A stretch of 64,000 bases of DNA from the IMG/VR virus record IMGVR_UViG_3300020414_000008, positions 1 through 64,000 of that record; one strand, given 5' to 3'. The first letter of the stretch is position 1. Every line of letters starts with the position of its first letter. The notes beneath the pieces are model-generated. The model searched no databases. It was given only the letters and a program-made list of their open reading frames with translations, and was not told where the DNA came from. Below are positions 3,891 through 35,252 of this stretch, one piece after another. The position numbers were made by a program, and so were the translations under genes. The DNA comes from a virus (taxonomy: Duplodnaviria; Caudoviricetes).

Positions 3891-3891
3891 A

Positions 3892-3925
3892 TTTGGATAT
3901 AAACTATTTTTTTTGTATATTTATA
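3892..3925 (+). promoter_or_regulatory. Composite host-type promoter (TTTG-N20-TATATTTA) overlapping the TATTTATA motif
   Basis: TTTG at 3892-3895, TATATTTA at 3916-3923, TATTTATA at 3918-3925, upstream of the portal gene. Confidence 0.5.
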
Positions 3926-3963
3926 GTTTGTAGACGTATACAATATAATTAGAAAACATAATT

Positions 3964-5850: not shown

Positions 5851-5899
5851 ATTATTTTTAGATATTTATATTGTAGTTGTTAGTAATTAAGGTAGAAAA

Positions 5900-7284: not shown

Positions 7285-7285
7285 T

Positions 7286-7435
7286 ATGTCTTGTGGATGT
7301 AATGAAAATAAAAAGATGACCTTGAAAGAGGAGTTGGAAGTAAATGATATCCAACAAATCAGAAAACTAATTCGACATGAATTGGCAAGAGTATTCTTTG
7401 ATTTATATCGTAAGAAAAAACAATGGGAAGGTTAA
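7286..7435 (+). CDS. Small hypothetical protein (49 aa, not in ORF track)
   Basis: MSCGCNENKKMTLKEELEVNDIQQIRKLIRHELARVFFDLYRKKKQWEG*; fills the gap exactly and abuts the protease ATG. Confidence 0.65.
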   Translation: MSCGCNENKKMTLKEELEVNDIQQIRKLIRHELARVFFDLYRKKKQWEG

Positions 7436-8068
7436 ATGAAACAACTACTAATTGATACAATGTTATTTGAAGTAACTCCTACTATGTTAAAAGAGTCTAA
7501 GGACAAGTATGGTAGATTTATGGTGAAAGGTGTTTTACAAAGAGCAAACGCTAAAAACCAAAATGGTAGAGTGTATCCAAAGGACATTCTAAAAAGAGAA
7601 GTTAACAAGTACATGGGTAGAGAAGTAAAAGAGAATAGAGCGTACGGTGAACTTGACCATCCTGAATCATCAGTTGTTGAATTAAAAAACACATCACACA
7701 TTGTAAGAGATGTTTATTGGAGAGGTGATGATGTTATGGGTACAGTTGAAATCCTTAACACTCCAGCAGGAAAAATATTACAAGAAATAATCAACGCTAA
7801 GTGTACAGTTGGTATTTCATCAAGAGGAATGGGTTCTGTAAAACAAATCAGTGAAGATGGTACAGTAGCAGTAGAACAAGACTTTGAATTGATTTGTTGG
7901 GACTTTGTATCTAATCCATCAACACATGGAGCATTTATGTCACCAAGGAATGAAAGTGTAATAAATGAAGGGATTAGTAAAAAACAAGATACTTATAGAT
8001 ATAATAAAGCACAAAACATCATGAGAGACATCATCTGTGAAGTTGGTGGGTATTGTGAGTGTTTTTAG
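7436..8068 (+). CDS. gp21: Prohead protease (T4 gp21-like)
   Basis: NQNGRVYP, GELDHP (catalytic His), GISSRGMGS (catalytic Ser), DFVSNPS. Confidence 0.95.
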   Translation: MKQLLIDTMLFEVTPTMLKESKDKYGRFMVKGVLQRANAKNQNGRVYPKDILKREVNKYMGREVKENRAYGELDHPESSVVELKNTSHIVRDVYWRGDDVMGTVEILNTPAGKILQEIINAKCTVGISSRGMGSVKQISEDGTVAVEQDFELICWDFVSNPSTHGAFMSPRNESVINEGISKKQDTYRYNKAQNIMRDIICEVGGYCECF

Positions 8069-13219: not shown

Positions 13220-16200
13220 ATGTCATTTGACTACACGGGTTCATTTAGTGGTTCGTTCACAGGTAATTTAATATCAACTAATGGAGTGATATCCTCATCG
13301 GCACAATTGCCAAGTGGGATTTTATCATCTTCTGCTCAATTACCAAGTGGAATAGTGTCCTCATCGGGACAAATCAACTATAATACTATTACAAACAAAC
13401 CAACTACAATATCTGCGTTCCAAAAAAACTCCATAACCGCAAATATTACGTTTAGACAAGAAACTTTTCCACCGATTTCTTCATCTCTTGCGACAAGAAT
13501 AACAACTGAAGAAGGAAACGTAGATAATTTACAGTCAGATGTAAGTGCTTTACAAACTGCAAGTGGTAGTTTTTCTACAAGAGTTACAAATATTGAAGGA
13601 GCGGGTTATTTAACTTCAGCAAGTGCAGCAGCCGCAGGGTTTGGAAGTGGTGGTTCAACTCCAGCAGGAACAATCAGTAGTTCACAACAAATTACAGACT
13701 TAGGTTTTTCAACAACAGATAGTACAGGTTCAGAGCAAACACTATCTTTTAATGATGGAACAAACGCATTAAGTATTTCAGGTGGAAATTCAGTAGATTT
13801 ATCGTCACTATCAGGTGGCGGTGGTGGTGGAGCCGGATTAAACATAACAGCATCAAATGAGGGAACTCCATTAAGTAAAATAGTTCGTAGTTTTGATTTT
13901 GTAGGTAACGCAGTTACAGCAACTAATGATGGTAACGCAGTTACGGTAACAGTAAACACAGGTTCACTAAAAGACGGAATCATTAGTGGTTCAGAACAGT
14001 TACCAAGTGGATTAATATCAGCATCAAACCAAATAACAATAACAGAATCACAAATTAGTGACTTAGGGTCATATTTAACGTCAGTTCCAGCAGGAACTGT
14101 TAGTGGTTCTACTCAAATTACTTTTAGTGGTATTAGTGGTACTCCAAGTGGGTTAGTATCATCTTCAAATCAGATACTACCAATCACAACTTCAAGTATT
14201 ACTGACTTCCCAACAGAAGTTTCAAAGTCAGCAGCGTCATTTGGGTTTGGAACAGGTGGTGGTGGTTCAACTGACATAACAGCATTAAATACATTTACAG
14301 GTTCTGCTAATACAAGTATTACAGCATTAAATACATTTACAGGTTCTGCGATTTCAAACAGTCAAACTTCGTCTATGACGGTAGCAACCGCATCATACGC
14401 GTTGTTTGCAATATCAGCATCACATGAGATAGTCACAGAAGTGTCTTCATCTCATGCAGTAAACGCAGATACAGCATCATTTGTGATAGGTCATGTACAA
14501 ACTTCTCAAACAAGTTCAATGTCTGTAGCAACTTCATCGTTTACAACAGGATTTTCAATTTTTGACGGGAACAGAGTAATATCTAACACAAATCTACCAG
14601 CGGGAGTTTACAATACTAACGCAGGAACAAGTGGTTCCCTAACACAATTTATAGAAAAGGTATTTTTCCCAAATACAGTACCATCAATCACAACAAATGG
14701 ATTTACAATCGGTGAATTCGTAGCAAGTGGTTCTGTAATTGGAACTGCGACAGCAACAGACGCAGAAGGACAAAGTATTACATTTAGAGAAGCAAGTTCT
14801 TACTCAGATGACTTCTTTAAGATAGCAAGTAACGGACAAATAACTCTAAATACTAAATCAACAGCATCAATGAACACTGATAATACGCCAGGTAGTGGTT
14901 CTCATCCATTCCCTATAGAAGCAGTGGATACATTCGCAGGTGTTGGTTCTAAAACATTATACATACGGGTAACTCCTAACACTCCACCTGTTTGGAGACA
15001 AACATCAGTAGGTGGTTCAATAGTGACAACGTTTACACAATCACTAAATGAAAATTCTGTAGCAGCAAATAATAAAGTTAGAGTTTATTTTACTGACGCA
15101 GAAAGTGACACTATAACAATCGGAAGTGGTTCAGCATTTGTAAGTTCAAGTTTTTCAATTACTAAAGCAAGTACATATGTTCAACTAAATCAGATAACTT
15201 CTTCATTAGATTATGAAGTTACCCCAAAATATGAATTCGTTTTAACAGCGAGTGATGAACATTATGGAAGTGGTGATGATACTGAATCAATTACTTACTT
15301 ACCATTCCAAATAGCAGTAGTTGATAACGTTGGTCCAACTGTAAATGACCAAACATTAGGAAGTATTAACGAAAATAGTGCAGATGGTGCAAGTGTAGGT
15401 TCAATAACTGCAACAGACCCAACAGGTGATACAATAACATTTAGTAACTTTACACTAAAAGAAGCAAATTTAGATGGTGGTTCAAATATTACATCATCTT
15501 TAGGTGGTAACTCATTATATGACCCACATCAAGACCCATTCCAATGTAGTTCGGCAGGTGCAGTAACAAGAAAGAATGGAGTTTATCTAAATTCTGATGT
15601 AGCGAACAGATATTTTTATCAAGTAACAGTAAAAGACGCATTTAACTCAACATCTGATACAGGTTTAATTAGAATTAATATCGCAGATGATTCAGCAACT
15701 TCAATAACTGACAATTGGGATAATTTATATATCATAGAATCCGCAACAAGTGGTAATGAAATAAAAATTAGTTCAAATGGTAGAACAGGTACAAGTGCAT
15801 TATGGTCATCAGGAGTATCTCAGAGATGGGAAGTTAAATCAACAGGTAATTTAATTGGATTATCATCTACAACAGGTTCAAGTGCAACTTTACAATTAGC
15901 AAGTAACCTAAGTGGTTCAGCATATTCAAGTGGAAGTACAATCGCAGTAGAACTAACTGCATCAGAAAATGGATTTGAAACAACTAAACAATATGTAAAT
16001 CAAAATATCGCAGTTGTTATCAATAACGCACCTGTTCCAAGTTTCAGTAACACATCTGCAAACTTAAATACAAATGGTGCAAGAAGTGGTAGTACAATTT
16101 CAACAATATCGTTTACAGATACAGAGAGTGATTCATTAAATCACGGTTCATTTACATTTACAGACCCAAGTGGTCAATTAAACGCATATAAATCTGGCGA

Positions 16201-17515
16201 TACTTACTTAGTACAACCAAAAAATAATTTAAGTGGTTCCACTTATCCAATGACCGCATCTATAAAAGATACTCATGGATTTAGAGTAGGTACTACTAAA
16301 CATAGTGTAACAATCGCATCAGCACCAAATGGTACTTTAACTACAAATGGTACATTTAGAATAATAGAGAGTGCAGAAAGTGGAGCACATATAAAAATTA
16401 ACGCTGATGGTAGAACGGGAACACAAGGTGACTTAGGAGTTACTTACTCACCTCAATATAATTCCGCAGCAGTACAAGCATTTACTTCATCTAACGCAGC
16501 CATCGCAGTAAACAGTAATGGTAAACTAACAATAGGTGTAAATATAAGTGGTTCAAGTACAGGTAGTGGTGATACAATTACATCAACTATATCATATCAA
16601 GACCAATTTAATAATATAGGTTCAGACAGTATATCAGTAAGTGTAGTTGCAAATCAGGCTCCAACAGCAACATTTAGTGAGATTGGTGCAAACATGACAG
16701 CATCGATTGCAAGTGGAACAGGTTTAGTAAGTATGTCAATATCTGATACAGAATCAGATACACCGTTCTCCGCTTCATTTAGTGGACCAAACGCAGGAAA
16801 CTTACAATTTGTACCACAAAATGCAAATTCATCGTCATACGTTATTAAAACGACAGGTACGATAAATTCAGGTGTAACATATAGTTATACAGCATCAGTA
16901 CATGATAACTTTGATAAATCAACATCATATAAAAGAACAATAACACTTCTTGACCCTGTAGCAAAAACATATGTTTATGGATGGGACGGTGGTTCTGCAG
17001 CAACAGAAGCAACAGCAATCGCATCTATGGGTGATAGTGGTGGTGATGGAGTAGGAATCGAAGCAGGTTCAGTAATCGCAAAACTACAAAGTGGTTCACT
17101 TGGTACAACATTCAGTCCAACTTATGTTGGTGGTACAATGTTACTATTTGGAAGTAGTTCAAAAACAACATTATCAGATAGTAATGCAACAGGACTATCA
17201 AGTTTTGGATATATAAACTTTAGTAGTGGTGGTTCAAAAAGATTAGTAGTAGTATTCCCATCAGCATCAAATCAGTTTGGGAAACCAGCAAGTATGTATG
17301 ATGGAGTTCCACCTGATTCAACAGGAACAGCAAAAGAATACTATGTATATGCAAAAGACGCCTCAATTCCTGGCACAATTGGAACAGGTGTATATTACTT
17401 CGACACTGAGAACGCAGTTGAAGGATATTCAAGATGGGGTATGATATTTGCAGAAGGTGAAAATACAAATAACTCAAGATATTATTTAATGCCTGACTCA
17501 GCGTCAGCACCATAG
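13220..17515 (+). CDS. Large virion fibre/decoration protein with cadherin/Ig-like repeats
   Basis: Ser/Thr/Gly-rich N-terminus with SSSAQ repeats, then repeated N..P...E....G..IG...ATD.EG..ITF cadherin-like modules (LDYE motif). Confidence 0.7.
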   Translation: MSFDYTGSFSGSFTGNLISTNGVISSSAQLPSGILSSSAQLPSGIVSSSGQINYNTITNKPTTISAFQKNSITANITFRQETFPPISSSLATRITTEEGNVDNLQSDVSALQTASGSFSTRVTNIEGAGYLTSASAAAAGFGSGGSTPAGTISSSQQITDLGFSTTDSTGSEQTLSFNDGTNALSISGGNSVDLSSLSGGGGGGAGLNITASNEGTPLSKIVRSFDFVGNAVTATNDGNAVTVTVNTGSLKDGIISGSEQLPSGLISASNQITITESQISDLGSYLTSVPAGTVSGSTQITFSGISGTPSGLVSSSNQILPITTSSITDFPTEVSKSAASFGFGTGGGGSTDITALNTFTGSANTSITALNTFTGSAISNSQTSSMTVATASYALFAISASHEIVTEVSSSHAVNADTASFVIGHVQTSQTSSMSVATSSFTTGFSIFDGNRVISNTNLPAGVYNTNAGTSGSLTQFIEKVFFPNTVPSITTNGFTIGEFVASGSVIGTATATDAEGQSITFREASSYSDDFFKIASNGQITLNTKSTASMNTDNTPGSGSHPFPIEAVDTFAGVGSKTLYIRVTPNTPPVWRQTSVGGSIVTTFTQSLNENSVAANNKVRVYFTDAESDTITIGSGSAFVSSSFSITKASTYVQLNQITSSLDYEVTPKYEFVLTASDEHYGSGDDTESITYLPFQIAVVDNVGPTVNDQTLGSINENSADGASVGSITATDPTGDTITFSNFTLKEANLDGGSNITSSLGGNSLYDPHQDPFQCSSAGAVTRKNGVYLNSDVANRYFYQVTVKDAFNSTSDTGLIRINIADDSATSITDNWDNLYIIESATSGNEIKISSNGRTGTSALWSSGVSQRWEVKSTGNLIGLSSTTGSSATLQLASNLSGSAYSSGSTIAVELTASENGFETTKQYVNQNIAVVINNAPVPSFSNTSANLNTNGARSGSTISTISFTDTESDSLNHGSFTFTDPSGQLNAYKSGDTYLVQPKNNLSGSTYPMTASIKDTHGFRVGTTKHSVTIASAPNGTLTTNGTFRIIESAESGAHIKINADGRTGTQGDLGVTYSPQYNSAAVQAFTSSNAAIAVNSNGKLTIGVNISGSSTGSGDTITSTISYQDQFNNIGSDSISVSVVANQAPTATFSEIGANMTASIASGTGLVSMSISDTESDTPFSASFSGPNAGNLQFVPQNANSSSYVIKTTGTINSGVTYSYTASVHDNFDKSTSYKRTITLLDPVAKTYVYGWDGGSAATEATAIASMGDSGGDGVGIEAGSVIAKLQSGSLGTTFSPTYVGGTMLLFGSSSKTTLSDSNATGLSSFGYINFSSGGSKRLVVVFPSASNQFGKPASMYDGVPPDSTGTAKEYYVYAKDASIPGTIGTGVYYFDTENAVEGYSRWGMIFAEGENTNNSRYYLMPDSASAP

Positions 17516-17533
17516 GAAAAGGAAAAGAAATAG

Positions 17534-18619
17534 ATGGCAACAACAGCAGGTGATATTTATGTAAGAAGTGGAGCGTCAGGTTCATTCACATCAGTACAAT
17601 ATGTACAAGGTGGTTGGATTACTGTACCGTCTGCTTCAGACATGAGTTCTATTTATCACGATAGACTTAGAGATGGACAGATTGTTTGGGTAGAACATAC
17701 TGAACAATTATATGTCACAAGAAAGTTTGTCGCATTCTCTACGCCAGGATACGGTGGTTCAGATGACTCAGCATCATTCCATACTACCAACTTAGGTATT
17801 TCAGGTGGTGGTGGTGGTGGAGCCGGTGATATTACATCGGTGACAGCAGGAACAGGTTTAAGTGGTGGTGGAGCATCAGGTGCAGTAACACTTAACTTAG
17901 ATACATCAGACGCAGCATTTATATCAGGTGTAAGTGGTCTACTGACATCATTAAATAATTTTACGGGTTCAGCAAATACAAGTATTACATCATTAAATAC
18001 TTTCACGGGTTCTGTGATTACAAACAGTATGACAAGTTCTATGAGTGTAGCAAGTTCTTCTGTATCAGATAGAGCAATGTTCGCAGCACAATGGACATTA
18101 GGTGCAGATGGTTCTAACCATTATACATTTACAGGTCACGGTTTGACGGGAGCGGAAAATGACCCAACTCTTTATTTAATGAGAGGTCAAAAATATAAAT
18201 TCATCAATAATATGGGAGCACATCCATTTAGGATTCAATCAACTCCAAATGGTTCAGCAGGTTCTGCATATAATGATGGTGTAACTAACAATGATGTTTC
18301 AAGTGGAACATTAACTTGGGACGTACAATTCGATTCACCAAGAGTTTTATATTATCAATGTACTGCTCACGCAAACATGGGTGGTGTAATTTACATACTA
18401 AACGCAGATACAGGTTCTGGCGGTGGTGGTGGAACAGGTGGTATATTTACAACTACAGGTTCTTTCAAATCAACTACGAACAATTTAGATATAACAGGTT
18501 CGGTTAGAGTCGGTGACGGTGTTTTAAGATTAAAAGAATTTACAACTACTCCAACTTATGAAGAGGGTGCAATATTTTATTCAGCATCAAACTTTTACTT
18601 TGGGTTAGGAAGTAGTTAA
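17534..18619 (+). CDS. Virion structural protein with cupredoxin-like domain
   Basis: GDITSVTAGTGLSGGG fibre motif; HPF...YYQCTAHANMGG. Confidence 0.65.
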   Translation: MATTAGDIYVRSGASGSFTSVQYVQGGWITVPSASDMSSIYHDRLRDGQIVWVEHTEQLYVTRKFVAFSTPGYGGSDDSASFHTTNLGISGGGGGGAGDITSVTAGTGLSGGGASGAVTLNLDTSDAAFISGVSGLLTSLNNFTGSANTSITSLNTFTGSVITNSMTSSMSVASSSVSDRAMFAAQWTLGADGSNHYTFTGHGLTGAENDPTLYLMRGQKYKFINNMGAHPFRIQSTPNGSAGSAYNDGVTNNDVSSGTLTWDVQFDSPRVLYYQCTAHANMGGVIYILNADTGSGGGGGTGGIFTTTGSFKSTTNNLDITGSVRVGDGVLRLKEFTTTPTYEEGAIFYSASNFYFGLGSS

Positions 18620-18722
18620 TAAAATATAATTACATATTTATATTATGTAAGAAATTGGTTTTGGACGGTACATTGTTGTGTACCATAAGTTGTTTAAAAT
18701 AATAAATTAATAGGAGAAAAAA

Positions 18723-20132
18723 ATGGCAACATGGAAAAAAGTCATTGTCTCGGGTTCAAGTGCCGACCTTCTTAATGTATCCGCATCAGCAGGGTTCAAA
18801 GGAAATTTAGTTGGTAACGTAACAGGGACGGCAACACAGGTTGGGAACAGTTTGACAGTTGATAATTCAACTATTCAGCTGGACTCAGGTACCACATATG
18901 ATGGTGCAGCAGCGAAGACCGTTAGTCTAAAAGACGGTGGTACTACGTTAGCAAAACAGGCTAATATGGCCGCAGATAGAATACAAGGTAGAGCAAATGG
19001 TGCAGGAACAGGTGTACCTCAAGCATTAACCAAAACACAAGTTTTAACAATTCTTAACGTTGAAGACGGAGCAGATGTAACTGACGCAGCGGGAATCGCA
19101 GCATTAGGTGCAGGAATTGTATCGTCATCAGCACAGGTATCAGGTTTAGCTGGTGTTAATGATTCAACAATCACAATAACCGCAGGTGATGGTTTAAAAA
19201 CGGGTGGTACATTTACATTGAATGATTCAAGTGACAGAGAAATAACACTTGATATTGATGTTGATGTTATGGCAGGTGCAGGTTTAGTTGCAGATAACAC
19301 AAATGAAGAATTAGATGTAAACGTAGATGACTCAACTATTGAAATCAGTTCAGACGCACTAAGAGTTAAAGATAGTGGTATTACATTAGCAAAAATAGCA
19401 AATATTGCAGACGATACAATTTTAGGTAATGTGTCAGGTGGTGCAGCAGCACCAAGTGCATTAAGTAAAGCAAATGTATTAACATTACTTAATGTTGAAG
19501 ATGGTGCAGATGTAACTGACGCAGCAGGAATTAGAGCATTAGGTGCAGGAATTATATCTTCTTCAGCACAAGTTGATATCTCAAGTAAAACTGTAGCAGC
19601 ATCACAAGTAACTGAAATCAGTAACTTAACTGCAGCAGAAGGTGCACAATTAGAGAACATCGGTACAACAACAATCTCAGCAGCTCAATGGGGTTACTTA
19701 GGTGGAATGGACCAAAATGTAAAAACAAACTCTAATGTTAACTTTAACAACTTGGTTGTAGCAGGTGATTTAACTGTTGAAGGTTCAAGAACTGAATTAC
19801 AAGTAGCTAACTTAAATGTAGAAGACCAATATATCTTATTAAACTCAGGTTCAACATCAGGAGACTCAGGTATTATATTTGGTGGTTCTAACACAACCGC
19901 TAACTCAGGTCACGCACTTATTTTAGATAATTCTTACAATTCTAACGATGGTCGTTTAGCAGTACAGGTAACTGATAAAGCAGCGTCTAACTCAGATGAC
20001 TTCGCAGCAGGTACAACAGGTTATTATTTAGCTGGTGTATATGAAGGAACTGAAGCTAACGCAGCAACAGCATTAGCAGACCATCCTGGCAATATAAGAA
20101 TAGAATCAAATGAGATTTATATCTATGTGTAA
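18723..20132 (+). CDS. Tail/head fibre-like structural protein
   Basis: MATWKKVIVSGS N-terminus; internal duplication LNVEDGADVTDAAGI.ALGAGI.SSSAQV; GDLTVEG...LNVED..ILLN fibre motif; AGGAG SD. Confidence 0.7.
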   Translation: MATWKKVIVSGSSADLLNVSASAGFKGNLVGNVTGTATQVGNSLTVDNSTIQLDSGTTYDGAAAKTVSLKDGGTTLAKQANMAADRIQGRANGAGTGVPQALTKTQVLTILNVEDGADVTDAAGIAALGAGIVSSSAQVSGLAGVNDSTITITAGDGLKTGGTFTLNDSSDREITLDIDVDVMAGAGLVADNTNEELDVNVDDSTIEISSDALRVKDSGITLAKIANIADDTILGNVSGGAAAPSALSKANVLTLLNVEDGADVTDAAGIRALGAGIISSSAQVDISSKTVAASQVTEISNLTAAEGAQLENIGTTTISAAQWGYLGGMDQNVKTNSNVNFNNLVVAGDLTVEGSRTELQVANLNVEDQYILLNSGSTSGDSGIIFGGSNTTANSGHALILDNSYNSNDGRLAVQVTDKAASNSDDFAAGTTGYYLAGVYEGTEANAATALADHPGNIRIESNEIYIYV

Positions 20133-20151
20133 ATAAATTAAAAAATTAGTT

Positions 20152-20340
20152 ATGTCAAATCACAAACAACTGAAAAAAAGTATACAACAAACCCAACAAG
20201 AGACAAACCTCAAGCTCACTAAACAAGAGCTTGAGGTTCTCTTATTTTTAATATCAAATGGAACCTTTAAGGGTACAGATATTGAAAGAATCTATAAATT
20301 AGCAGTAAAAATTCAAGTAGAACACGATAAATTAAAATAG
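20152..20340 (+). CDS. Small hypothetical protein (possible fibre chaperone)
   Basis: 62 aa; L+.+EL..L...+...+.G pattern shared with the next ORF. Confidence 0.6.
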   Translation: MSNHKQLKKSIQQTQQETNLKLTKQELEVLLFLISNGTFKGTDIERIYKLAVKIQVEHDKLK

Positions 20341-20342
20341 TT

Positions 20343-20534
20343 ATGGAACAATACAAAGGTTTAGAAGAAAACGATTTAAAAGTTATACAAATCGCATTAA
20401 ATAAACTACCAATAACAGGTGCAGAAGCACAGATGATGGTAGGAATCCAACAAAAAATCCAAATGGAGTTAGACTTCTTAAAAACTCCAAAAAGAGGTAG
20501 ACCAAAAAAAGGTAATACAATAATTAAAGGATAA
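20343..20534 (+). CDS. Small hypothetical protein (possible fibre chaperone, paralog-like of previous)
   Basis: 63 aa; LEENDLKVIQIALNKLPITGAEA...KIQ resembles the upstream ORF. Confidence 0.6.
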   Translation: MEQYKGLEENDLKVIQIALNKLPITGAEAQMMVGIQQKIQMELDFLKTPKRGRPKKGNTIIKG

Positions 20535-20590
20535 TTTTACTTTCTTTTATTTTTTCAATACTTATATAAAAGAAATTAAGTTAAATCTTG

Positions 20591-20636
20591 GTTGTTGGCC
20601 CTTATGGGAAGTGGGCACGAATGTGTTACCAACCGC
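20591..20636 (+). ncRNA. Putative structured 5'-UTR RNA (three-way junction)
   Basis: GTTGG/CCAAC closing stem, CCC-TTAT-GGG hairpin, AAGT linker, GGCAC-GAAT-GTGTT hairpin; GC-rich patch in an AT-rich intergenic region. Confidence 0.4.
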
Positions 20637-20652
20637 AAATTAGGATTAGAAT

Positions 20653-21462
20653 ATGCCAAATTGGAAAAAAGTAGTAACTTCAGGCAGTAATGCCGTATTT
20701 AATGAAATAACCGCGTCAGGTGAAGTTCGTTTCGATGGAACGGGTTCATTTAATTCAGGAATACATCTTCCTGACTCTAAAGAAATATCGCTAGGTGATG
20801 GCGGAAATCTAAAAATATATCATAACGGTGCAAATTCTTACATTCACGAAGGTAAGGGTGACGCAGACGGAGCATTATACATTATTGGTTCTTGGTTGTT
20901 GATGGAATCAACGGAAGGAAACCCATTAATCTATGCAAAACACGGTGACAACACAGGAGAGGTTCAATTATATCACGGTGGTAATCAAAAATTTAGAACA
21001 CAAGCAACAGGGTCCCATGTAACAGGTCACTTATCATTATCAGGTGGTATAACTAAAGCACCTATGATGATTTCAACAAATGGTGAAGTTCCACTTGAAG
21101 GTATAACTAATGCATTTGTTCCATTCTCAAGTATAAACACAATGGACCAACATACAGTAAACGGTTACTATCAATTCGCAGCACCGTATGATGGAACTGT
21201 ACAAAAAATTATGGTTCATCCACATACAAACGCAACAGCAGGTACTTGTACAATACAACTATTAAAAAACGGAAGTAATTTAGGAAGTTCTGTACAGGCA
21301 TCAATTTCAGCAACAAGAGGTACTATTAGAGAATTTAGTTTCGGAGATACTTACAGTTTTGATAAAGGTGATAGACTAAATCTAAAATTTGACAGAGAAG
21401 AAGCAGAACGAGCAACAGGTTTTGGGTTCACAATAGTATTTGAAATGAACACAACAACATAA
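20653..21462 (+). CDS. Fibre-associated structural protein
   Basis: [13 protein letters not shown]-terminus shared with 18723; [17 protein letters not shown] fibre repeat; beta-rich C-terminal domain. Confidence 0.65.
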
Positions 21463-21472
21463 GGGGTATAAT

Positions 21473-24400
21473 ATGAGTTTGATACACGGATTACATAAAG
21501 ATACCTTACTTGAAATCAACGGTAAACTTACTTCAATAAGTAATATATTAGTTGGTGATAAAGTCCAAGGTTACGATACACAGAATGGTGTCTACAGAGA
21601 CAATAAAGTTGTTAGAGTTGTAACACAAGAAATAGATTCTCATTTAAAATTAAAACTTTCAGACGGAACTGAGTTAAAAACTTCCGTTGATATAAAAATA
21701 TATAAAGATGGTGAATGGGTTTCACCAATCGGTAATACGTCATGCGCATCTGATGATTGTAAATGTTCTCATAAATCATTTTTCAATGACATAAAAGTTA
21801 TTTCCGTAGAATTAGTAGAAAAACCTATAGTAATTAGAAGTATAGAGGTAGAACCTGACCATAATTACTTTGTAGGTAATCTATTAGTACACAACACGGG
21901 TCCACAAGGTCCTAAAGGTCAAAAAGGACAAAAAGGTGCCTTAGGTCCAGCAGCATCGCCAGGTCCTCAAGGAGCACAGGGTGCTAAAGGTAGTACAGGT
22001 GGACAAGGTGGTACAGGTTCAACAGGTCCAAAAGGTCCAAAAGGTTCTACAGGTCCACAGGGAGCACAAGGTCCACAAGGTGCAACAGGACCAAAAGGTC
22101 CACAAGGTGCAACAGGACCACAAGGTGCAACAGGACCACAGGGAGCAACAGGAGCAAAAGGTCCTAAAGGTTCCACAGGTGGGGCGGGTCCAAAAGGTCC
22201 AAAAGGTCCCACAGGTGCAAAAGGTCCAAAAGGTAGTTTAGGTCCACAAGGTGCAAAAGGTCCAAAAGGTTCTACAGGTCCACAAGGTCCACAAGGTGAT
22301 ACAGGTCCTACAGGTGCATCGTTAACAGGTCCACAAGGTGGAAAAGGTCAAAAAGGTGCAACAGGAGCATCACCAACAGGTCCACAAGGTCAAAAAGGTC
22401 AAAAAGGTGCAACAGGTCCTCAAGGTTCAAGTCCTCAGGGTTCTAAAGGTCAAAAAGGTCAAAAAGGTGTAACAGGTCCTCAAGGTTCAAGTCCACAAGG
22501 TGCAACAGGTCCTCAAGGTGGAAAGGGTCAAAAAGGTGAAGTAGGAGCATCACCTCAGGGTGCAACAGGTGCACAAGGTGCAAAAGGTCCACAGGGTCCT
22601 CAAGGTCAAAAGGGTGCACAAGGTTCATCACCACAAGGTGCACAAGGTCCTACAGGAGCAACAGGTGCACAAGGTGCATCACCTCAGGGTGCTAAAGGTC
22701 AAAAAGGTCAAAAAGGTGCAACAGGTCCACAAGGTGCACAAGGTTCAAGTCCACAAGGTTCTAAAGGACAAAAAGGTGCAACAGGTCCACAAGGTGCACA
22801 GGGTGCAAGTCCTCAGGGAGCAAAAGGTAATACAGGTCCAGCAGGAGCAGTAGGTGCACAAGGTCCACAAGGTGCAAGTCCAAAAGGTCAAAAGGGTGCA
22901 CAGGGTAGTACAGGAGCACAAGGTCCTCAAGGTGCACAAGGTTCAAGTCCTCAGGGAGCAAAAGGTCCTAAGGGTCAAAAAGGTGCAGTAGGTCCTCAAG
23001 GTGCACAGGGTGCAAGTCCAACAGGTCCTAAAGGTCCACAGGGAGCGACAGGACCACAAGGAGCACAAGGTGCAAGTCCTAAAGGTCAAAAAGGTGAAGT
23101 AGGTCCTCAAGGTCCTCAAGGAGCACAGGGTTCATCACCACAAGGTGCAAAAGGTCCTCAAGGTTCTAAAGGACAAAAGGGTGAAGTAGGAGCATCACCA
23201 ACAGGTCCACAGGGTGCACAAGGTGCAAAAGGTCCACAGGGTCCTGAAGGTCAAAAAGGTTCACAAGGTGCAAGTCCAAAAGGTTCTCAAGGTCCTACAG
23301 GAGCAACAGGAGCACAAGGTGCAAGTCCTCAAGGTGCAAAAGGTCCTAAAGGTCCACAAGGAGCACAAGGTCCACAAGGTGCACAAGGTGCAAGTCCTCA
23401 AGGTTCTAAAGGTCAAAAAGGTGCAACAGGTCCTCAGGGTGCACAGGGAGCATCACCTCAAGGAGCACAGGGTGCAAAAGGTGCACAAGGTCCTCAGGGT
23501 GAACAAGGTGCACAAGGTGCAAGTCCTAAAGGTCAAAAAGGTCAAAAAGGTGAAGTAGGAGCACAAGGTCCACAAGGAGCACAAGGTTCAAGTCCTCAAG
23601 GTTCTAAAGGACAAAAAGGTCAAAAAGGAGCAGTAGGTCCTCAAGGTGCACAAGGAGCATCTCCTCAGGGAGCACAAGGTCCTCAAGGTTCTAAAGGTCA
23701 AAAAGGTGAAATAGGAGCACAGGGTGCGAGTCCAAAAGGTCAAAAAGGTGCACAAGGTGGTCAAGGGGCAACAGGAGCACAGGGTTCATCACCACAAGGT
23801 GCTAAAGGTCCACAGGGGTCTAAAGGTCAAAAAGGTGAAATAGGAGCACAAGGTGCAAGTCCTAAAGGTCAAAAAGGTGAAGTAGGAGCACAAGGTCCTC
23901 AAGGTGCACAGGGTTCAAGTCCTAAAGGACAAAAAGGTGAAGTAGGAGCACAAGGTCCTCAAGGTGCACAGGGTTCAAGTCCTCAAGGTGACCGAGGTGC
24001 ACAAGGAGCAACAGGAGCACAAGGTCCTCAAGGTGCACAAGGTGCAAGTCCTCAAGGTGCAAAAGGTCCTAAGGGTCAAAAAGGTGAAATAGGAGCACAG
24101 GGTGCAAGTCCACAAGGAGCACAAGGTCCTAAAGGTCCTCAGGGTGACCAAGGTGCACAAGGTAGTTCACCTCAAGGTTCAAAAGGTGAAAAAGGACAAA
24201 AAGGAGCACAAGGTCCAACAGGTGCACAGGGTGCAAGTCCACAAGGTGCAAAAGGTCAGAAAGGACAAAAAGGTGCATTAGGTGACCAAGGTGCACAGGG
24301 TGCAAGTCCAAAAGGTCAAAAAGGTGAATTAGGTCCTAAAGGTCAAAAAGGTGAAATAGGAGCACAAGGTGCAAGTCCTAAAGGTCAAAAAGGTGAAATA

Positions 24401-24901
24401 GGAGCACAGGGTCCTCAGGGTGACCAAGGTGCACAAGGAGCAGCACCTCAAGGTTCTAAAGGTCAAAAGGGTGAAGTAGGAGCACAAGGTCCTCAAGGTG
24501 CACAAGGTGCAAGTCCTAAAGGTCAAAAAGGTGAAATAGGAGCACAGGGTCCTCAAGGTGCACAAGGTTCATCACCTCAAGGAGCACAAGGTCCTAAAGG
24601 TGAAAAAGGTCAAAAAGGTGAAAAGGGTGCAACAGGAGCACAAGGTGCAAGTCCTAAAGGTGAAAAAGGTCAAAAGGGTGCACAAGGAGCAACAGGAGCA
24701 CAAGGAGCGAGTCCTCAAGGAGATAAAGGTCAAAAAGGTGTAACAGGAGCAAAAGGTGAACCAGCATTAGGAACGGTAATTAATCAACTAACTGCGCCTG
24801 GTGATGGATTTAGTTTTTCTTTAAATGATGGATTATTAACATTTAAGAGTGGAAGTTTCACAGGTATCGTTTTGATGTATACAAGTGGAAGTGTCTCTTA
24901 A
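21473..24901 (+). CDS. Collagen-like protein 1 with N-terminal Hint domain
   Basis: Residues 1-141 are Hint-like, ending [18 protein letters not shown]|T; ~950 aa of Gly-X-Y with periodic G(A/S)SP(Q/K/T)G breaks; short C-terminal domain. Confidence 0.88.
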
Positions 24902-24917
24902 TATAAAAAGGTAACAG

Positions 24918-28628
<3,711 letters not shown>

Positions 28629-28679
28629 TATTTATTAAAATAATTTTCATATTTATATAAAAGATTAAAACAATTAGTT

Positions 28680-29282
28680 ATGAATGGTAATTTCTCGTTT
28701 GATAGAAACACATACAGACAAGACGTAAACTTTACTGATTATTATTGGTTCAAGAACGCATTTTCCCCACAAGAGTTAGTTAATATAGAACAAATGACAA
28801 ACGCGATTGAATTCGAAGACGCGGTAACAGGTGAGGGTGATAATTCAAAAGTATCTGATTACAGAAAGTCAAGAATAAAATGGTGTCCACAAAATCTTGA
28901 GTGGGCGTGGGTATATAATAAACTTCACGATTATATAAAAGAAGCAAATGACATAATGTGGAAGTTTGATTTATCTACTATGAATGAATCAATCCAATAT
29001 ACAGAATATTATGGAACACAAGAAGGTGGATATGAATGGCACATGGATTGTGGTGAACAAATTCAAAACCAAAGAAAAGTATCAGTAACAGTACAACTTT
29101 CAGATTCACATGAGTATGAAGGTGGTGATTTGGAATTTAATATTGGTCAACATAAGGTAGCACCAAGGTCTCAAGGAGCAGCAGTTATATTTCCATCATT
29201 TTATTTACATAGAGTAACTCCTGTAACAAAGGGTGTAAGAAAGTCTTTCGTTCTTTGGGTAGGTGGAGAACCATATAGGTAA
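28680..29282 (+). CDS. 2OG-Fe(II) oxygenase (prolyl-4-hydroxylase/PKHD-like)
   Basis: WHMD (HxD), YEGGDLEF, FPSFYLHRVTPVTKGVRKS (distal His, 2OG-binding Arg). Confidence 0.9.
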   Translation: MNGNFSFDRNTYRQDVNFTDYYWFKNAFSPQELVNIEQMTNAIEFEDAVTGEGDNSKVSDYRKSRIKWCPQNLEWAWVYNKLHDYIKEANDIMWKFDLSTMNESIQYTEYYGTQEGGYEWHMDCGEQIQNQRKVSVTVQLSDSHEYEGGDLEFNIGQHKVAPRSQGAAVIFPSFYLHRVTPVTKGVRKSFVLWVGGEPYR

Positions 29283-29288
29283 TTTACT

Positions 29289-30578
29289 ATGAAAACAAGT
29301 TTACCCACAGCATTAATATATGGTTGGGATAGGTTTGGTGAAATAAAATTAAAATCAGATGTATATCACCAAGAAGATTTGTATGAAGATGTTATTTTAT
29401 ATTCATATGAATCGAGTATAGATTTTAAAAAAGATTTCGCAAAACATAGACCCGATATTATTATTGTAATTGGTGAAGTTGGAAATAATATTTTACAAAT
29501 GGGACATCATACGATGGTATCAAGTAAGATAGTATCATATGATTCTATTCCATCTGATAATATTTTGGCTAATGATGTAGTTTGTCAATCAACATTTTGG
29601 GCATGTAAATCACAAAAAGAAGTATATGGTGATAAAGATAAACCAATACTATCTATATTTACTCCAACTTATATAACAAACGAAAGAATATTTAGAACGT
29701 ATGAAAGTTTGGTAAATCAAACTTACGAAAATTGGGAGTGGGTTGTCGTAGATGATTCACCATCTGATGAAAACAAAACTTGGGAATATCTTGAAGATAT
29801 CGCAAGTCAAGATTATAGAGTTCACATACATAAAATGACACCAACCTCAGGTGGTAACGTTGGTGAAGTAAAACATAGAGCAGCTATGTTATGTAATGGT
29901 GAATGGTTATTTGAATTAGACCATGATGATTGGTTAATTTCAACTTGTTTGGAAGATGTATTTAAAGCAAGTAAGAAACATCCTGATTCAGGATTTATAT
30001 ATACAGACGTAACTGAAATTAACAAAGATAATTCACCAAGAGATTATGGTCGTATAGGAGATGATTGGTATGGACATCCTGATAATAACTTTGCATGGGG
30101 ATATGCAGGACATACTTGGGAAACAAGAGACGGTGAGAAATGGTTAGTACATCACTATCCTGATATTAACCCTAAAACAATTAGATTTAATATTGGTATG
30201 CCAAATCATTGTAGAGTTTGGAATAGAGATACTTATCATAAGATAAGAGGACATAGTAGACATATATCAGTCGCAGATGATTATGAATTGATTGTAAAAA
30301 CATTTTTAGAAACTAAATTTATACATCTTAAAAAAATGTTGTATGTACAATATAATAATGGTGATTCTACAGTTGATAATAATGTAATTGATATTAATCG
30401 TAGAGCAAGATTGATTAGAGATTATTATGACCCAATGATTCACAAAAGAATAAAAGAATTGGGTGGTTTTGATTGGAGTTGGAATGAAGATGATAATAGA
30501 TGTTATCAATTACAACGTTGGATGGATTGGACCCGATTTTATGACAAAGAAGAAGTTTTAAATTATATAGTAGAGTAA
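29289..30578 (+). CDS. Family 2 glycosyltransferase with extra N-terminal domain
   Basis: SIFTPTY, WEWVVVDDS, GEWLFELDHDD, ADDYEL motifs. Confidence 0.9.
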   Translation: MKTSLPTALIYGWDRFGEIKLKSDVYHQEDLYEDVILYSYESSIDFKKDFAKHRPDIIIVIGEVGNNILQMGHHTMVSSKIVSYDSIPSDNILANDVVCQSTFWACKSQKEVYGDKDKPILSIFTPTYITNERIFRTYESLVNQTYENWEWVVVDDSPSDENKTWEYLEDIASQDYRVHIHKMTPTSGGNVGEVKHRAAMLCNGEWLFELDHDDWLISTCLEDVFKASKKHPDSGFIYTDVTEINKDNSPRDYGRIGDDWYGHPDNNFAWGYAGHTWETRDGEKWLVHHYPDINPKTIRFNIGMPNHCRVWNRDTYHKIRGHSRHISVADDYELIVKTFLETKFIHLKKMLYVQYNNGDSTVDNNVIDINRRARLIRDYYDPMIHKRIKELGGFDWSWNEDDNRCYQLQRWMDWTRFYDKEEVLNYIVE

Positions 30579-30581
30579 GAT

Positions 30582-32279
30582 ATGAAAATATTAATTTATG
30601 TAGGTTATCAAAAAGAATCAGTTAACAAAGATTATTGGTTAAGTAAAGGAATGGGTGGTTCTGAATATTGTGTTATGAAACTTTCAGAACAATTCGCACA
30701 AAATGGACACGATGTAACAATTACAGGTGGTATTACCGACCAAGATGTTGATGGTGTCAAGTATAGAAGTATAGAAAGTTTTATTAATAGTGGTGAAAAC
30801 TATTTTGATATTGTAATATCTACAAATTATATACATTATATTCAAATGTTAGAGGATTTTGGAATAAATTATGAAAAATCTTATTTTTGGATTCATAATG
30901 AAGAATTTTATACTTGGTACAATGGTGTAGAATTACCAAATGAAGGATTGGATTATCTAAATCACGACAAGTTAGATAAGATAATAGCAGTATCAGAATG
31001 GCAAAAAAATGTATTAGTTGAAAAATATAGTTTGGAACCATCTAAAGTAAGTGTAATAGGAAACGCGATAACTCCAAGTGATTTTGATAGTATTGAACAA
31101 GAAAAATATAACAATAAAATAATCTATACATCATCACCTGATAGAGGGTTAGTTGATTTACTTGATATATGGCCAAAACTTAAAAAAATAAATCCTGAAT
31201 TAACTTTATGGATTGCATCACCACCATATACAAAAGATTGGGACCTTTCTGTATTAGAATCGTTACCAAATGATGTTAGATGGTTAGGTCATTTACCACC
31301 AAGTGAACTATACAAACAAATTAAATCATCTGAGTATTGGATTTACCCATCCACATACGATGAGACATATTGTATAACAGCATTAGAGATGATGATGGGT
31401 AGAGTTAAATTGATATCTACTGATACAGCAAATCTCAAAACTTTATTAGATGGTAAATGTAGTTTAATCAGGTCAGATTTATCTAACTCATTAATGAAAG
31501 AAACAATAATTTCTTCATATGTATTTTTAAGAGAAAATGAAGAAGTAGCACAAAAATATTTAAACGTAGGTGAACAATTTGCAAGAGAACAGACTTGGGA
31601 AGTCAGATATAAAGAGTGGATGGATGTAATGGAAGGTTATTCAGAAGAAACAGAAAGATTACATCCCGAACTTTACGATTATTGGAACAACAAAGAGGAA
31701 TGGGTAAATAAATTTATCACATATTCAGCAAGAACAAAAGAATGGGACTTGATAGTAGATGAACCATTTGATAATTGTTTTTCATTTCCATTATTTACTC
31801 CTGAGTTTTGTAAAATGATTCGTGAAGAAGCAGAACATTCTGATTCTTGGACAGTAGACAGACACGAAAACTATCCTACAACAGATATGGTCTTACAGAC
31901 GATAGGAATGCATGACATTTATATGGAAGTATTAAAAGAATATGTTATGCCATTATCAATCTATATGTGGGCATTGGAAGGTAAAGGTTGGGATTCTATG
32001 AAAGCTGAAAACTTTTTAGCAAAATATATACCAACAGCACAAGGACATCTTTCTATACATCATGATAGAGCAGATATTACTTGTTTGATACAATTATCGG
32101 ACTTAAATGAGTATGAAGGTGGTGGTACTTGGTTCAGACGACAAAAGAAATTAATTAAGAATGATATCGGTTATGCAACCCTACATCCTGGCAACATAAC
32201 TCACAAGCATGGGGCAAGAGCAGTGACAAAAGGGACACGTTATATAATAGTTTCGTTTATGGAAAATGGGGAAAGGTAA
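30582..32279 (+). CDS. GT-B (GT4-like) glycosyltransferase fused to a PLOD-like lysyl hydroxylase domain
   Basis: N-terminal GGSE...YTSSPDRGL...YPSTYDETYCITALE; C-terminal LHPELY..W, FPLFTPEFC, ENYPTTD, HHD, YEGGGTWF, LHPGNITHKH, GTRYIIVSF as in LH/PLOD catalytic domains. Confidence 0.85.
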   Translation: MKILIYVGYQKESVNKDYWLSKGMGGSEYCVMKLSEQFAQNGHDVTITGGITDQDVDGVKYRSIESFINSGENYFDIVISTNYIHYIQMLEDFGINYEKSYFWIHNEEFYTWYNGVELPNEGLDYLNHDKLDKIIAVSEWQKNVLVEKYSLEPSKVSVIGNAITPSDFDSIEQEKYNNKIIYTSSPDRGLVDLLDIWPKLKKINPELTLWIASPPYTKDWDLSVLESLPNDVRWLGHLPPSELYKQIKSSEYWIYPSTYDETYCITALEMMMGRVKLISTDTANLKTLLDGKCSLIRSDLSNSLMKETIISSYVFLRENEEVAQKYLNVGEQFAREQTWEVRYKEWMDVMEGYSEETERLHPELYDYWNNKEEWVNKFITYSARTKEWDLIVDEPFDNCFSFPLFTPEFCKMIREEAEHSDSWTVDRHENYPTTDMVLQTIGMHDIYMEVLKEYVMPLSIYMWALEGKGWDSMKAENFLAKYIPTAQGHLSIHHDRADITCLIQLSDLNEYEGGGTWFRRQKKLIKNDIGYATLHPGNITHKHGARAVTKGTRYIIVSFMENGER

Positions 32280-32315
32280 GTTTGTCCATATTTATATACA
32301 TAAAGGGGATTTAAA

Positions 32316-33479
32316 ATGGCAGTAAATATACCAATATGGCCTGGTTCAGGTTCGTTTTCAAGTGGTTCTTCTACTCCTTTCGGATACTTTGATGGTGATA
32401 CAACATTTCAAAGTGACGCACCGAAAGTAGCAGAATGGTGTGCTAAAAGATTAGGATATCCAATCGTAGATGTCGAATTACAAGATATAAACTTTTTCGC
32501 GTGTTTAGAAGAAGCAGCAAATGAATATTCTTCACAAGTAAATCAATATAGAGCTAAAGAAAACTTACTATCTTTAAAAGGTAATTCATTAGATTTAGAT
32601 TTAAAAGATACTGAAATCGCTACTAACTTAGGTGGAGTAGTAAATATTGCAAAAGATTATGGTACTGAAGCGGGAAGTGGTGGTAGAGTAACTGTATATA
32701 CAGGTTCCTTTGAAATGGTTGGTGGTCAACAAATATATGACTTAGGTGATGATAATGTTGTTAACTTAGAAAGTGGTTCAGTATCAAACGGGATTACACT
32801 AAGAAAAGTATTCCATACACAACCACCAGCAATAATAAGATATTTTGACCCGTTTGTAGGAACAGGTCTTGGTTCTCAACAAATGTTAAATACATTTGGA
32901 TGGGGAGCGTATTCGCCAGGTGTATCGTTTATGATGCAACCGATGTTCGATGACTTGTTAAGATTACAGGCGATTGAATTTAATGATTACATAAGAAAAT
33001 CATCATTTGGATTTCATGTAGATGGACAAAGAGTAAAATTATTCCCTGTTCCTGCAACAGGTGACGCAGGTGCAAAAGTATATTTTAATTATACATTAGA
33101 AAGTGAAACAAAATCACCGATTGCAAATTCAAATGTTGTAAGTGATTTATCAAACGCACCATTTGGAAGATTAACATATACAAATATTAATAGTGCGGGT
33201 AAACAGTGGATTGCAAGATATTCATTAGCATTAGCAAAAGAAATGTTAGGAGCAATCAGGTCTAAGTTCAGTAACATTCCAATTCCTGGCTCTGAAATAA
33301 CACTTGACGGTGGTGATTTACGAAGTGAAGCAGCAGCGGAAAGAGAAACACTAATCACTGAATTAAAAGAAATGTTAGAAGCAACTTCACGAAGAGCATT
33401 AATGGAAGCGAAAAAAGAAGAATCTGAATTCTTAGAGGAAACTTTAAACAGAGTTCCAAGACCAATTTTTATAGGATAA
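32316..33479 (+). CDS. Neck/head-completion protein (gp13-like)
   Basis: KRLGYPIVDVEL and ALAKEMLGAIRSKF..IP.PG..ITLDG motifs; position upstream of the tail genes. Confidence 0.75.
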   Translation: MAVNIPIWPGSGSFSSGSSTPFGYFDGDTTFQSDAPKVAEWCAKRLGYPIVDVELQDINFFACLEEAANEYSSQVNQYRAKENLLSLKGNSLDLDLKDTEIATNLGGVVNIAKDYGTEAGSGGRVTVYTGSFEMVGGQQIYDLGDDNVVNLESGSVSNGITLRKVFHTQPPAIIRYFDPFVGTGLGSQQMLNTFGWGAYSPGVSFMMQPMFDDLLRLQAIEFNDYIRKSSFGFHVDGQRVKLFPVPATGDAGAKVYFNYTLESETKSPIANSNVVSDLSNAPFGRLTYTNINSAGKQWIARYSLALAKEMLGAIRSKFSNIPIPGSEITLDGGDLRSEAAAERETLITELKEMLEATSRRALMEAKKEESEFLEETLNRVPRPIFIG

Positions 33480-35182: not shown

Positions 35183-35252
35183 GTATTCGTTTTGGAAATT
35201 TTTGGGGTATTTATATAAAGGTAAACCAAAGATTTTAATTTAGGAGAAAATA

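Follow-up and report, generated by a model that had tools for sequence, protein, structure and literature searches.

As far as we found it in print, hydroxylysine-linked glycosylation of collagen is confined to animals and to giant viruses (mimivirus). Animal procollagen is modified by the lysyl hydroxylases LH1-3 (PLOD1-3), the galactosyltransferase COLGALT1 (GLT25D1) and the glucosyltransferase of LH3. The mimivirus system comprises the collagens (L71 and others), L230, which combines a lysyl hydroxylase (LH) with a hydroxylysine glucosyltransferase, R699, a galactosyl-hydroxylysine (Gal-Hyl) glucosyltransferase, and R655 (PMC9546862, PMC12279948). For bacteria, the available part of Iyer et al. 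2010 (PMC2938197) predicts that 2-oxoglutarate (2OG) dioxygenases encoded beside collagen-like or tail-collar proteins hydroxylate these neighbours. Here we describe a module of five genes in a tailed bacteriophage, in which two giant collagen-like proteins with Hint-like N-terminal domains are followed by a 2OG-Fe(II) oxygenase, a family 2 glycosyltransferase (GT2) and a fusion of a family 4 glycosyltransferase with an LH domain (GT4::LH). The module lies in the first 64 kb (the window) of a 180,769-bp IMG/VR virus record, estimated to be 94% complete, and the virus is a T4-like myovirus from a clade of uncultured marine phages.

We read these genes as a late-expressed fibre module through which two very long collagen-like fibres would be made and post-translationally modified by the phage's own enzymes, and we assign this reading a probability of about 60%. 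Its closest known counterpart is the mimivirus system, followed by the animal LH and COLGALT pathway. Like mimivirus, the phage encodes collagen-like proteins together with a bifunctional glycosyltransferase-LH enzyme. Unlike mimivirus, a giant virus of eukaryotes, it is a tailed bacteriophage whose collagens have Hint domains at their N-termini and whose enzymes are encoded right beside the proteins they presumably modify, within a single late structural module; the transferase joined to LH is a GT-B enzyme of family GT4, whereas those of L230 and LH3 are GT-A, and its activity is predicted. With animal procollagen the system shares the homology of the LH domain, lysine at the Y position of the Gly-X-Y triplets, chains of ~1000 residues and COLGALT1-homologous GT25 enzymes, which are found in the phage genome and fused in sister phages. 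It differs from the animal system in having no LH3-type GT-A or accessory domain and in collagens that are almost free of proline at Y, implying that there is no animal-type 4-hydroxyproline chemistry. In place of propeptides and separate propeptidases the phage has the Hint domain, and the process would be cytoplasmic and bacterial. The dioxygenases treated in the available part of Iyer et al. 2010 (PMC2938197) belong to other families, and that part describes no LH-type enzyme, glycosyltransferase fusion or Hint-capped phage collagen. The original prediction, made from the window's sequence, knew of no such system described in a tailed phage; a full-text literature search that left most subscription journals uncovered likewise turned up no LH-type enzyme, hydroxylysine or Hint-capped collagen in a bacteriophage.

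Collagen lysines and the GT4::LH fusion

All five genes named in the original prediction are present on the + strand, at 21473-32279 (Table 1). The first two encode the expected Gly-X-Y proteins of ~1.1-1.2 thousand residues, both of which consist almost wholly of this repeat, and dozens of above-cut-off matches to the Pfam collagen repeat PF01391 tile both open reading frames (ORFs). The triplets are rich in X-Lys-Gly and X-Thr-Gly, again as predicted: lysine occupies the Y position 87 times in collagen 1 and 71 times in collagen 2 (158 of the 618 triplets) and the X position zero times and once, respectively, and threonine stands at Y 34 and 103 times. Proline is found at Y in just three of the 618 triplets (one in collagen 1, two in collagen 2). 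Relatives of the phage show the same preference of lysine for Y over X, e.g. 115 versus 3. The repeat of collagen 1 contains ~40 breaks of the type G-x-S-P-[Q/K/T]-G, which are kept in the orthologues of the related loci L035, L044 and L045 (36-48 apiece), and that of collagen 2 contains five breaks. Considering that the collagen triple helix rises by 0.286 nm per residue, the helical parts would extend over ~270 nm in collagen 1 and ~285 nm in collagen 2 if fully helical, the size of an animal fibrillar collagen.

The last gene of the module joins a GT-B glycosyltransferase to a PLOD-like domain, as had been proposed. The glycosyltransferase part matches the GT4 families PF13439, PF13692 and PF00534 with 36, 31.6 and 30.3 bits, all above the cut-offs, and phrog_2170 at 6e-21, and the E-x7-E motif can be read in the translation; over the whole protein, Pfam reports GT4/GT1 families plus an OGFOD2-like family. 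Residues 355-561 are clearly homologous to human LH3 (E 1e-30) and to the solved LH domain of mimivirus L230 (1e-22). This domain keeps H-H-D, T-H-x-H (with the distal histidine) and G-T-R-Y-I, aligned with the LH3 motifs, and its iron and 2-oxoglutarate residues are intact. No match to the N-terminal domains of LH3 was found in the fusion, whose architecture is not the succession of GT-A, accessory and LH domains seen in LH3. Homologues of the fusion number 258 in a large protein collection; most are of marine origin and take one of two forms, GT4::LH (~558 aa) and GT4::GT25::LH (~790 aa). When a phage collection was searched, the enzyme block gave no match at the nucleotide level, and the fusion protein gave only partial, distant matches of <30% identity.

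Synteny in related phages, by which the original prediction had proposed to check the system, supports the lysine-modifying module. Enzymes and collagens co-occur in ~95 related contigs that keep the gene order, and wherever the contig reaches far enough, the order collagen(s), oxygenase, (GT2), (GT4::LH), gp13 is found in all 42 IMG/VR loci retrieved through the fusion and in further loci retrieved through gp13. Most loci have the full cassette. GT2 is missing from L080, L103, L104 and L107-L112, and GT4::LH is missing from L091, L092, L096, L098, L106 and L113. To compare these cassette types, we counted lysine at Y over the last 100 triplets at most of the orthologous collagen whose gene immediately precedes that of the oxygenase. 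Lysine fills 550 of 1936 Y positions in 24 distinct LH-bearing cassettes (median 30%) versus 5 of 376 in the six LH-free cassettes.

Within 21473-32279 there is no GT25 domain. A tandem-GT25 gene is located ~90 kb away in the same genome (G000:122058-123533, 491 aa); the second domain of its product matches COLGALT1 at 8e-18, and each of the two domains shares 33% identity with the GT25 domain fused in the sister phages. In those phages the triple fusion occupies a cassette of the same gene order, with a GT25 part that is related to human procollagen galactosyltransferase 1 (5e-13). According to the CAZy classification, GT25 enzymes are inverting and GT4 enzymes retaining; by analogy, the pair may parallel the animal Glc-alpha-1,2-Gal-beta-Hyl glycan, where the second enzyme would be a non-homologous one.

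In the reading we favor, the LH domain would convert the lysines of X-Lys-Gly triplets to hydroxylysine on still-unfolded chains, the GT25 galactosyltransferase-like enzyme (encoded at a distance here, fused in the sister phages) would attach the first sugar, and the fused GT4 would add or lengthen the glycan. As a prediction from sequence, the hydroxylation and glycosylation of lysines in its own collagens by the phage is strongly supported by the LH homology, the placement of lysine at Y, the synteny, the covariation of LH with lysine and the GT25 fusion.

The surroundings of the tandem-GT25 gene (G000:C1:119800-126500, L062) contain a cytidylyltransferase-like gene, an FkbM-type methyltransferase, two DUF2589 genes and another methyltransferase, and this region may be a second glycan-related gene cluster.

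Terminal domains of the two collagens

Both collagens had been proposed to start with a Hint-like domain; this held for collagen 1, and the case for collagen 2 is weaker. In Pfam, the N-terminus of collagen 1 gives no more than a sub-cut-off hit to PT-HINT (E 1e-4). When 1.8 billion representative sequences were searched with phmmer, 292 matches were obtained, reaching E 5e-21 for PT-HINT proteins, and 10 of 10 distant matches that were checked carry PT-HINT or intein domains well above the cut-off at the matched place. Its AlphaFold2 model (predicted local distance difference test, pLDDT, 85) retrieves the bacterial intein-like (BIL) structure BIL2 6y75 at E 1e-10 with a template-modelling (TM) score of 0.75, and mini-inteins with TM 0.7-0.8. 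The N-terminus of collagen 1 is a genuine Hint fold. It keeps block F (E-P-D-H-N-Y-F; D129-H130) and block G (V-H-N), with an invariant His-Asn, so that the residues for C-terminal cleavage, H140-N141 and D129-H130, are in place, and it has neither the Cys/Ser1 nucleophile nor the block-B TxxH of a splicing intein. The N-terminal domains are not splicing inteins. Upstream of its ATG there are only eight open codons.

For the N-terminus of collagen 2 no Pfam match was obtained, and alignment with a Hint profile covers its last 25 residues only (blocks F and G), at an hhalign probability of 10%. Its AlphaFold2 model is of low confidence (pLDDT 45); in the PDB, nearly all of the best matches to this model, about 40 of the top ones, belong to inteins or to Hedgehog Hint domains, and their target TM scores go up to 0.54. 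V-H-N and Asp168 are invariant in eight homologues of 26-39% identity, and V-H-N makes up three of just 25 invariant columns in the alignment. His-Asn is thus invariant in both collagen families, among homologues down to 26% identity. A direct profile comparison of the two N-terminal domains is weak, with a probability of 49% over 45 columns.

The collagen 1 domain has its nearest relatives among PT-HINT and BIL domains, which cleave rather than splice; cleavage at the C-terminus of the Hint domain frees the downstream part. Inteins in which Cys1 is mutated still cleave C-terminally by cyclisation of the asparagine. From their residues, we infer that both N-terminal domains are Hint domains reduced to this C-terminal half-reaction, and that they may release themselves by asparagine cyclisation between N141 and T142 in collagen 1 and between N179 and F180 in collagen 2, acting as self-removing propeptides. 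Such self-removal is plausible and moderately supported by the conserved residues. It could also be that the Hint domains are catalytically dead structural parts, serving virion attachment or folding, which are retained on the mature fibres and do not cut themselves off. Several features weigh on this side and against self-removal. The Hint domain of collagen 1 begins five residues into the protein, with glycine where Cys1 would be, and its block-B TxxH reads T-S-V-D, so that both the N-terminal nucleophile and the block-B histidine are lost. The domain of collagen 2 has no block-F histidine and no nucleophile after the asparagine (Phe, Asp or Pro instead), and its fold assignment leans on the low-confidence model. 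In addition, T4 fibritin is anchored through its N-terminal part, and an N-terminal anchor encoded beside the neck genes would fit that arrangement. These features are set against a His-Asn pair that stays constant in both families while most other columns vary, against the Asp-His of block F in collagen 1, and against the C-terminal cleavage of Cys1-mutated inteins and the splicing-free cleavage of PT-HINT and BIL domains. On balance we consider retained, inactive Hint domains unlikely, though to be taken seriously.

If cleavage occurs as predicted, the arrangement would resemble BIL and PT-HINT proteins in fold, in sequence (for collagen 1), in the retained C-terminal His-Asn and in that splicing is not expected. 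It would differ from them in that the domain sits at the extreme N-terminus, with no N-extein, Cys1 or block-B histidine, and in that the released part is a fibre rather than a toxin. A further parallel is with the intramolecular chaperones of phage tailspikes and fibres (endosialidase-type, Peptidase S74), where a terminal domain aids assembly and then removes itself; fold and chemistry are unrelated (asparagine cyclisation by Hint versus a Ser-Lys dyad), and the domain is N-terminal here and C-terminal there.

At the other end, the C-terminal tails of the two collagens are related to each other and conserved throughout the relatives. In an alignment of 11 homologues of the collagen 2 tail, G, Y, F and S-G-S are invariant, and the tail is also retained in LH-free cassettes. 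A Pfam scan found no family in either tail, and an atlas search with the tail of collagen 2 yielded merely sub-threshold clusters of viral collagens and tail fibres, with scores of 0.84 at most. When modelled in three copies, the C-terminus of collagen 2 passed our mark (0.43, best control 0.01), as do 20 of 30 solved one-chain pairs and 1 of 23 single chains; runs agree on at least 72% of contacts, with pLDDT of at least 56. Its confident interface comprises residues 1-30, i.e. the last Gly-X-Y triplets, and the model is silent on trimerisation of the globular tail; moreover, the pass may stem from likeness to solved collagen peptides. The ~40-residue tails would probably nucleate or anchor the trimers.

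Enzyme targets and competing readings

The remaining two enzymes were assigned correctly in the original prediction. The small oxygenase matches PF13640 at 1e-14 and phrog_61 at 7e-36, its H-x-D and distal histidine are visible, a PDB search places the PKHD-type hydroxylase PiuC first (1e-6), and its identity with the LH domain amounts to 28%. GT2 matches PF00535 at 1e-16 with 61 bits (cut-off 23.3), and its best PDB match is chondroitin synthase K4CP (1e-11). Their proposed place in a single animal-like pathway, together with the fusion, was not supported. No cassette seen in full lacks the oxygenase, not even those without LH, and both it and GT2 persist where LH and the collagen lysines are absent, while GT2 is missing from some LH-bearing cassettes; both enzymes therefore probably act outside the lysine pathway. 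Collagen prolyl 4-hydroxylation by the oxygenase does not fit either, with 3 X-Pro-Gly sites in 618 triplets and with PKHD/PiuC, rather than collagen prolyl 4-hydroxylases, as solved relatives. Judging from these patterns, the oxygenase and GT2 probably perform a second, lysine-independent modification. Of the compact phage procollagen system as first proposed, the predicted lysine hydroxylation and glycosylation module is strongly supported and the self-removal of the Hint domains moderately so.

Taken to its full extent, the proposal would amount to a complete, self-contained phage 'procollagen' pathway in the bacterial cytoplasm, with a Hint leader that holds the chains back and marks them for modification, hydroxylysine, galactose plus a further hexose, the second modification, and glycosylated neck fibres of ~0.3 micrometre as its product. 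We regard this full version as doubtful.

The three enzymes might also act on something other than the collagens, such as host envelope glycans or lipopolysaccharide, another virion protein or a small molecule, in which case their adjacency to the collagens would reflect inheritance as a block. This is where the points against our reading gather. Everything said of hydroxylysine, glycans, cleavage and a place in the virion is deduced from sequence. Genes closely related to the fusion, with ~63-68% identity over the LH portion, occur singly in gammaproteobacterial chromosomes and in other phage-like contigs, and no collagen was found within 10 kb of any of them; the related triple fusions of L057, L065 and L066 likewise do not stand beside collagens. 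The related loci form one fairly close clade (gp13 78-99% identical), so that the conserved order could be simple descent, and work on marine myophages interprets glycosyltransferases of the fibre region as modifiers of the host O-antigen (PMC7029224). Three LH-bearing cassettes have just 11-17% lysine at Y, and the LH-free contigs are short, so that an LH gene could lie elsewhere in those genomes. On the gp13 tree the absence of LH requires five changes, and well-supported branches enforce at least two of these; in the oxygenase tree, where the cassettes lacking LH almost group together, two changes are needed and one is possible. A test of independent pairs for loss of LH against loss of lysine gave two pairs on well-supported branches (five on the best tree), all in the same direction and too few for significance. 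The link between LH and lysine may thus go back to as few as one or two events in evolution, combined with transfer of the module among phage backbones. A further candidate exception, the LH-bearing and lysine-free L120, was rejected because the end of its collagen ORF reads as a frame-shifted Gly-X-Y repeat at the contig end.

Against targets other than the collagens stands the nature of the LH domain, which is a specific relative of collagen lysyl hydroxylases and not a generic oxygenase. The lysines are restricted to the position that LH-type enzymes use and vanish from the collagens of LH-free cassettes, a COLGALT1-like GT25 is fused to LH in sister phages, and the enzymes carry the upstream motif of the structural genes (see below). 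One bacterial genome with a fusion homologue could be searched and has collagen-like ORFs on other contigs, a weak point in view of PF01391 matches in 4 of 14 control genomes. We consider it improbable that the enzymes leave the collagens untouched. That LH acts on the collagen lysines only for helix stability or cross-linking, with the glycosyltransferases directed to Thr/Ser or other targets, is very unlikely: the Y-position threonines (above all the 103 of collagen 2), the retention of GT2 in lysine-free cassettes and a PDB search in which neither GT2 nor GT4 matched known Gal-Hyl glucosyltransferases (the LH3 glycosyltransferase domain, mimivirus R699) speak for it, but GT4 is physically fused to LH in the 258 homologues, a COLGALT1-like GT25, from a family whose known role on collagen is hydroxylysine galactosylation, is inserted between GT4 and LH in many of them, and the block encodes an oxygenase and two glycosyltransferases and no lysyl oxidase, for which the rest of the genome was not searched.

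Two arrangements around related enzymes were seen on the way. The GT4::GT25::LH gene of L057:10001-16154 and L065:10001-15570, in a different phage-like or MAG contig filed as Neptunomonas phycophila, lies ~750 bp upstream of a 953-aa gene of the bacterial collagenase family Peptidase_M9; no collagen gene was found within 10 kb of this triple fusion. The phage-like contig L066 has two LH-bearing genes close to each other (3432-7883), an 826-aa GT::LH and a 448-aa GT25::LH.

Gene neighbourhood and implications

The window follows the order gp23 capsid, PhoH, a fibre block of ~19 kb, gp13-, gp14- and gp15-like neck genes, tail sheath and tail tube. As the original prediction had it, the module lies between fibre and neck genes: fibre- and baseplate-like genes (phrog_677, tail-fibre PHROGs) precede it, and the neck genes and then the sheath follow. 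Homologues of the 269-aa fibre-like protein sit ahead of collagen 1 in L035 and L044, and the gp13 homologue of L059 bears PF26809 (Phage_T4_gp13). In the T4 gene order fibritin precedes gp13, and this is what suggests that the collagen fibres would be placed near the neck. The G+C content is 44-51% across the collagens versus 30-37% in their surroundings, in line with the codons for Gly, Ala and Pro.

Table 1. Features of the collagen module and its borders (positions in the window)
Feature	Position	Strand	Description
Fibre-like protein	20653-21462	+	269 aa; first gene of the unit leading into the collagens; tail-fibre/virion-protein PHROGs, E 1e-9
Collagen 1 gene	21473-24901	+	1142 aa
Collagen 1 Hint domain	21473-21895	+	aa 1-141, ends His140-Asn141; Thr142 next
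Collagen 1 triple-helix region	21899-24763	+	aa 143-1097; 292 Gly-X-Y triplets
Collagen 1 C-terminal tail	24764-24901	+	~45 aa, non-collagen; L-T-F ... S-G-S motif
Collagen 2 gene	24918-28628	+	1236 aa
Collagen 2 N-terminal domain, Hint-like	24918-25454	+	aa 1-179, ends Val-His-Asn179
Collagen 2 triple-helix region	25521-28505	+	aa 202-1196; 326 Gly-X-Y triplets
Collagen 2 C-terminal tail	28506-28628	+	~40 aa; G-Y-F ... L-T-F-K ... S-G-S
TATTTATA motif	28650-28657	+	30 nt upstream of the oxygenase gene; promoter-like
2OG-Fe(II) oxygenase gene	28680-29282	+	200 aa
GT2 gene	29289-30578	+	429 aa
GT4::LH fusion gene	30582-32279	+	565 aa
GT4 (GT-B) domain	30582-31631	+	aa 1 to ~350 of the fusion
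LH (PLOD/LH-type) domain	31644-32279	+	aa 355-565 of the fusion
TATTTATA motif	32289-32296	+	27 nt upstream of gp13
gp13-like neck protein	32316-33479	+	phrog_211 at 1e-13; downstream border of the module
TATTTATA motif	35208-35215	+	within the motif span 163-35215

The motif TATTTATA occurs 18 times in the window, where 7.2 occurrences are expected. The nine copies traced to a start codon lie 25-46 nt upstream of genes, those starting at 188, 1232, 3964, 5900, 13220, 28680, 32316, 34901 and 35253, which belong to the head, fibre, neck and sheath part and include the oxygenase, gp13 and the sheath. It is often embedded in caTATTTATAta. TATTTATA equals the T4 late-promoter core TATAAATA read as its reverse complement, an odd orientation for an element on the coding strand. 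Since the enzyme trio shares the motif with neck, sheath and other structural genes, its position suggests co-regulation of the enzymes with the virion genes.

The nearest isolate is Microcystis phage Mel-JY01, whose sheath is 54% identical. In this phage PhoH runs straight into the neck genes, so that 13220-32279 of the window is extra relative to Mel-JY01, which has no homologue of the fusion and no comparable block between PhoH and gp13. In the window, the block after PhoH opens with a 1431-aa protein (13220-17515) that matches the cadherin-like repeat PF00028 at E 1e-7 and is probably another surface or fibre protein. Mel-JY01 carries a collagen ORF elsewhere, at the start of its genome (L055, PP395634.1:1-3052). 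This frame of 1016 codons is on the + strand, has Pfam repeats above the cut-off and overlaps two hypothetical coding sequences on the minus strand; the deposited annotation of this region is probably on the wrong strand. Downstream of it follow a 1226-aa 'FkbM methyltransferase' and a cytidylyltransferase-like gene.

Further observations concern collagens outside the module and in its relatives. Outside the window, at G000:C1:166212-168089, an 11-triplet collagen stretch in an open frame of 2722 codons marks a third, minor collagen-bearing protein. The lysine-free collagens of L091, L098, L106 and L113 have many His residues at X (4-15 in each fragment) and are likewise rich in Gln and Thr at the Y position. 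A likeness of the relatives' collagen 2 to a 361-aa gp10-like protein, seen in a first BLAST pass, was discarded as low-complexity noise. The DNA is present in marine metagenomes of several studies. Contigs from four metatranscriptome libraries contain short stretches almost identical to parts of both collagens, the oxygenase, GT2, the end of LH and gp13; this is not evidence of transcription, considering that RNA libraries can contain DNA, and the parts left uncovered are uninformative.

A small set of enzymes suited to the bacterial cytoplasm and acting on defined Gly-X-Lys sites would be attractive for the production of modified recombinant collagen. A Hint domain placed at the extreme N-terminus for C-terminal cleavage alone would represent a new role in nature for intein chemistry, that of a propeptide. 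Enzymes of the LH and GT25 families tied to giant collagens in abundant marine phages would carry hydroxylysine-linked glycosylation into the bacterial and phage world, which bears on the origin of the animal enzymes: if true, LH/GT25 chemistry is widespread in marine phages and bacteria and may have arisen there. For the phages themselves, the module predicts very long, sugar-coated fibres by the neck, which could influence how hosts are found, how particles sink or aggregate, or serve as a shield.

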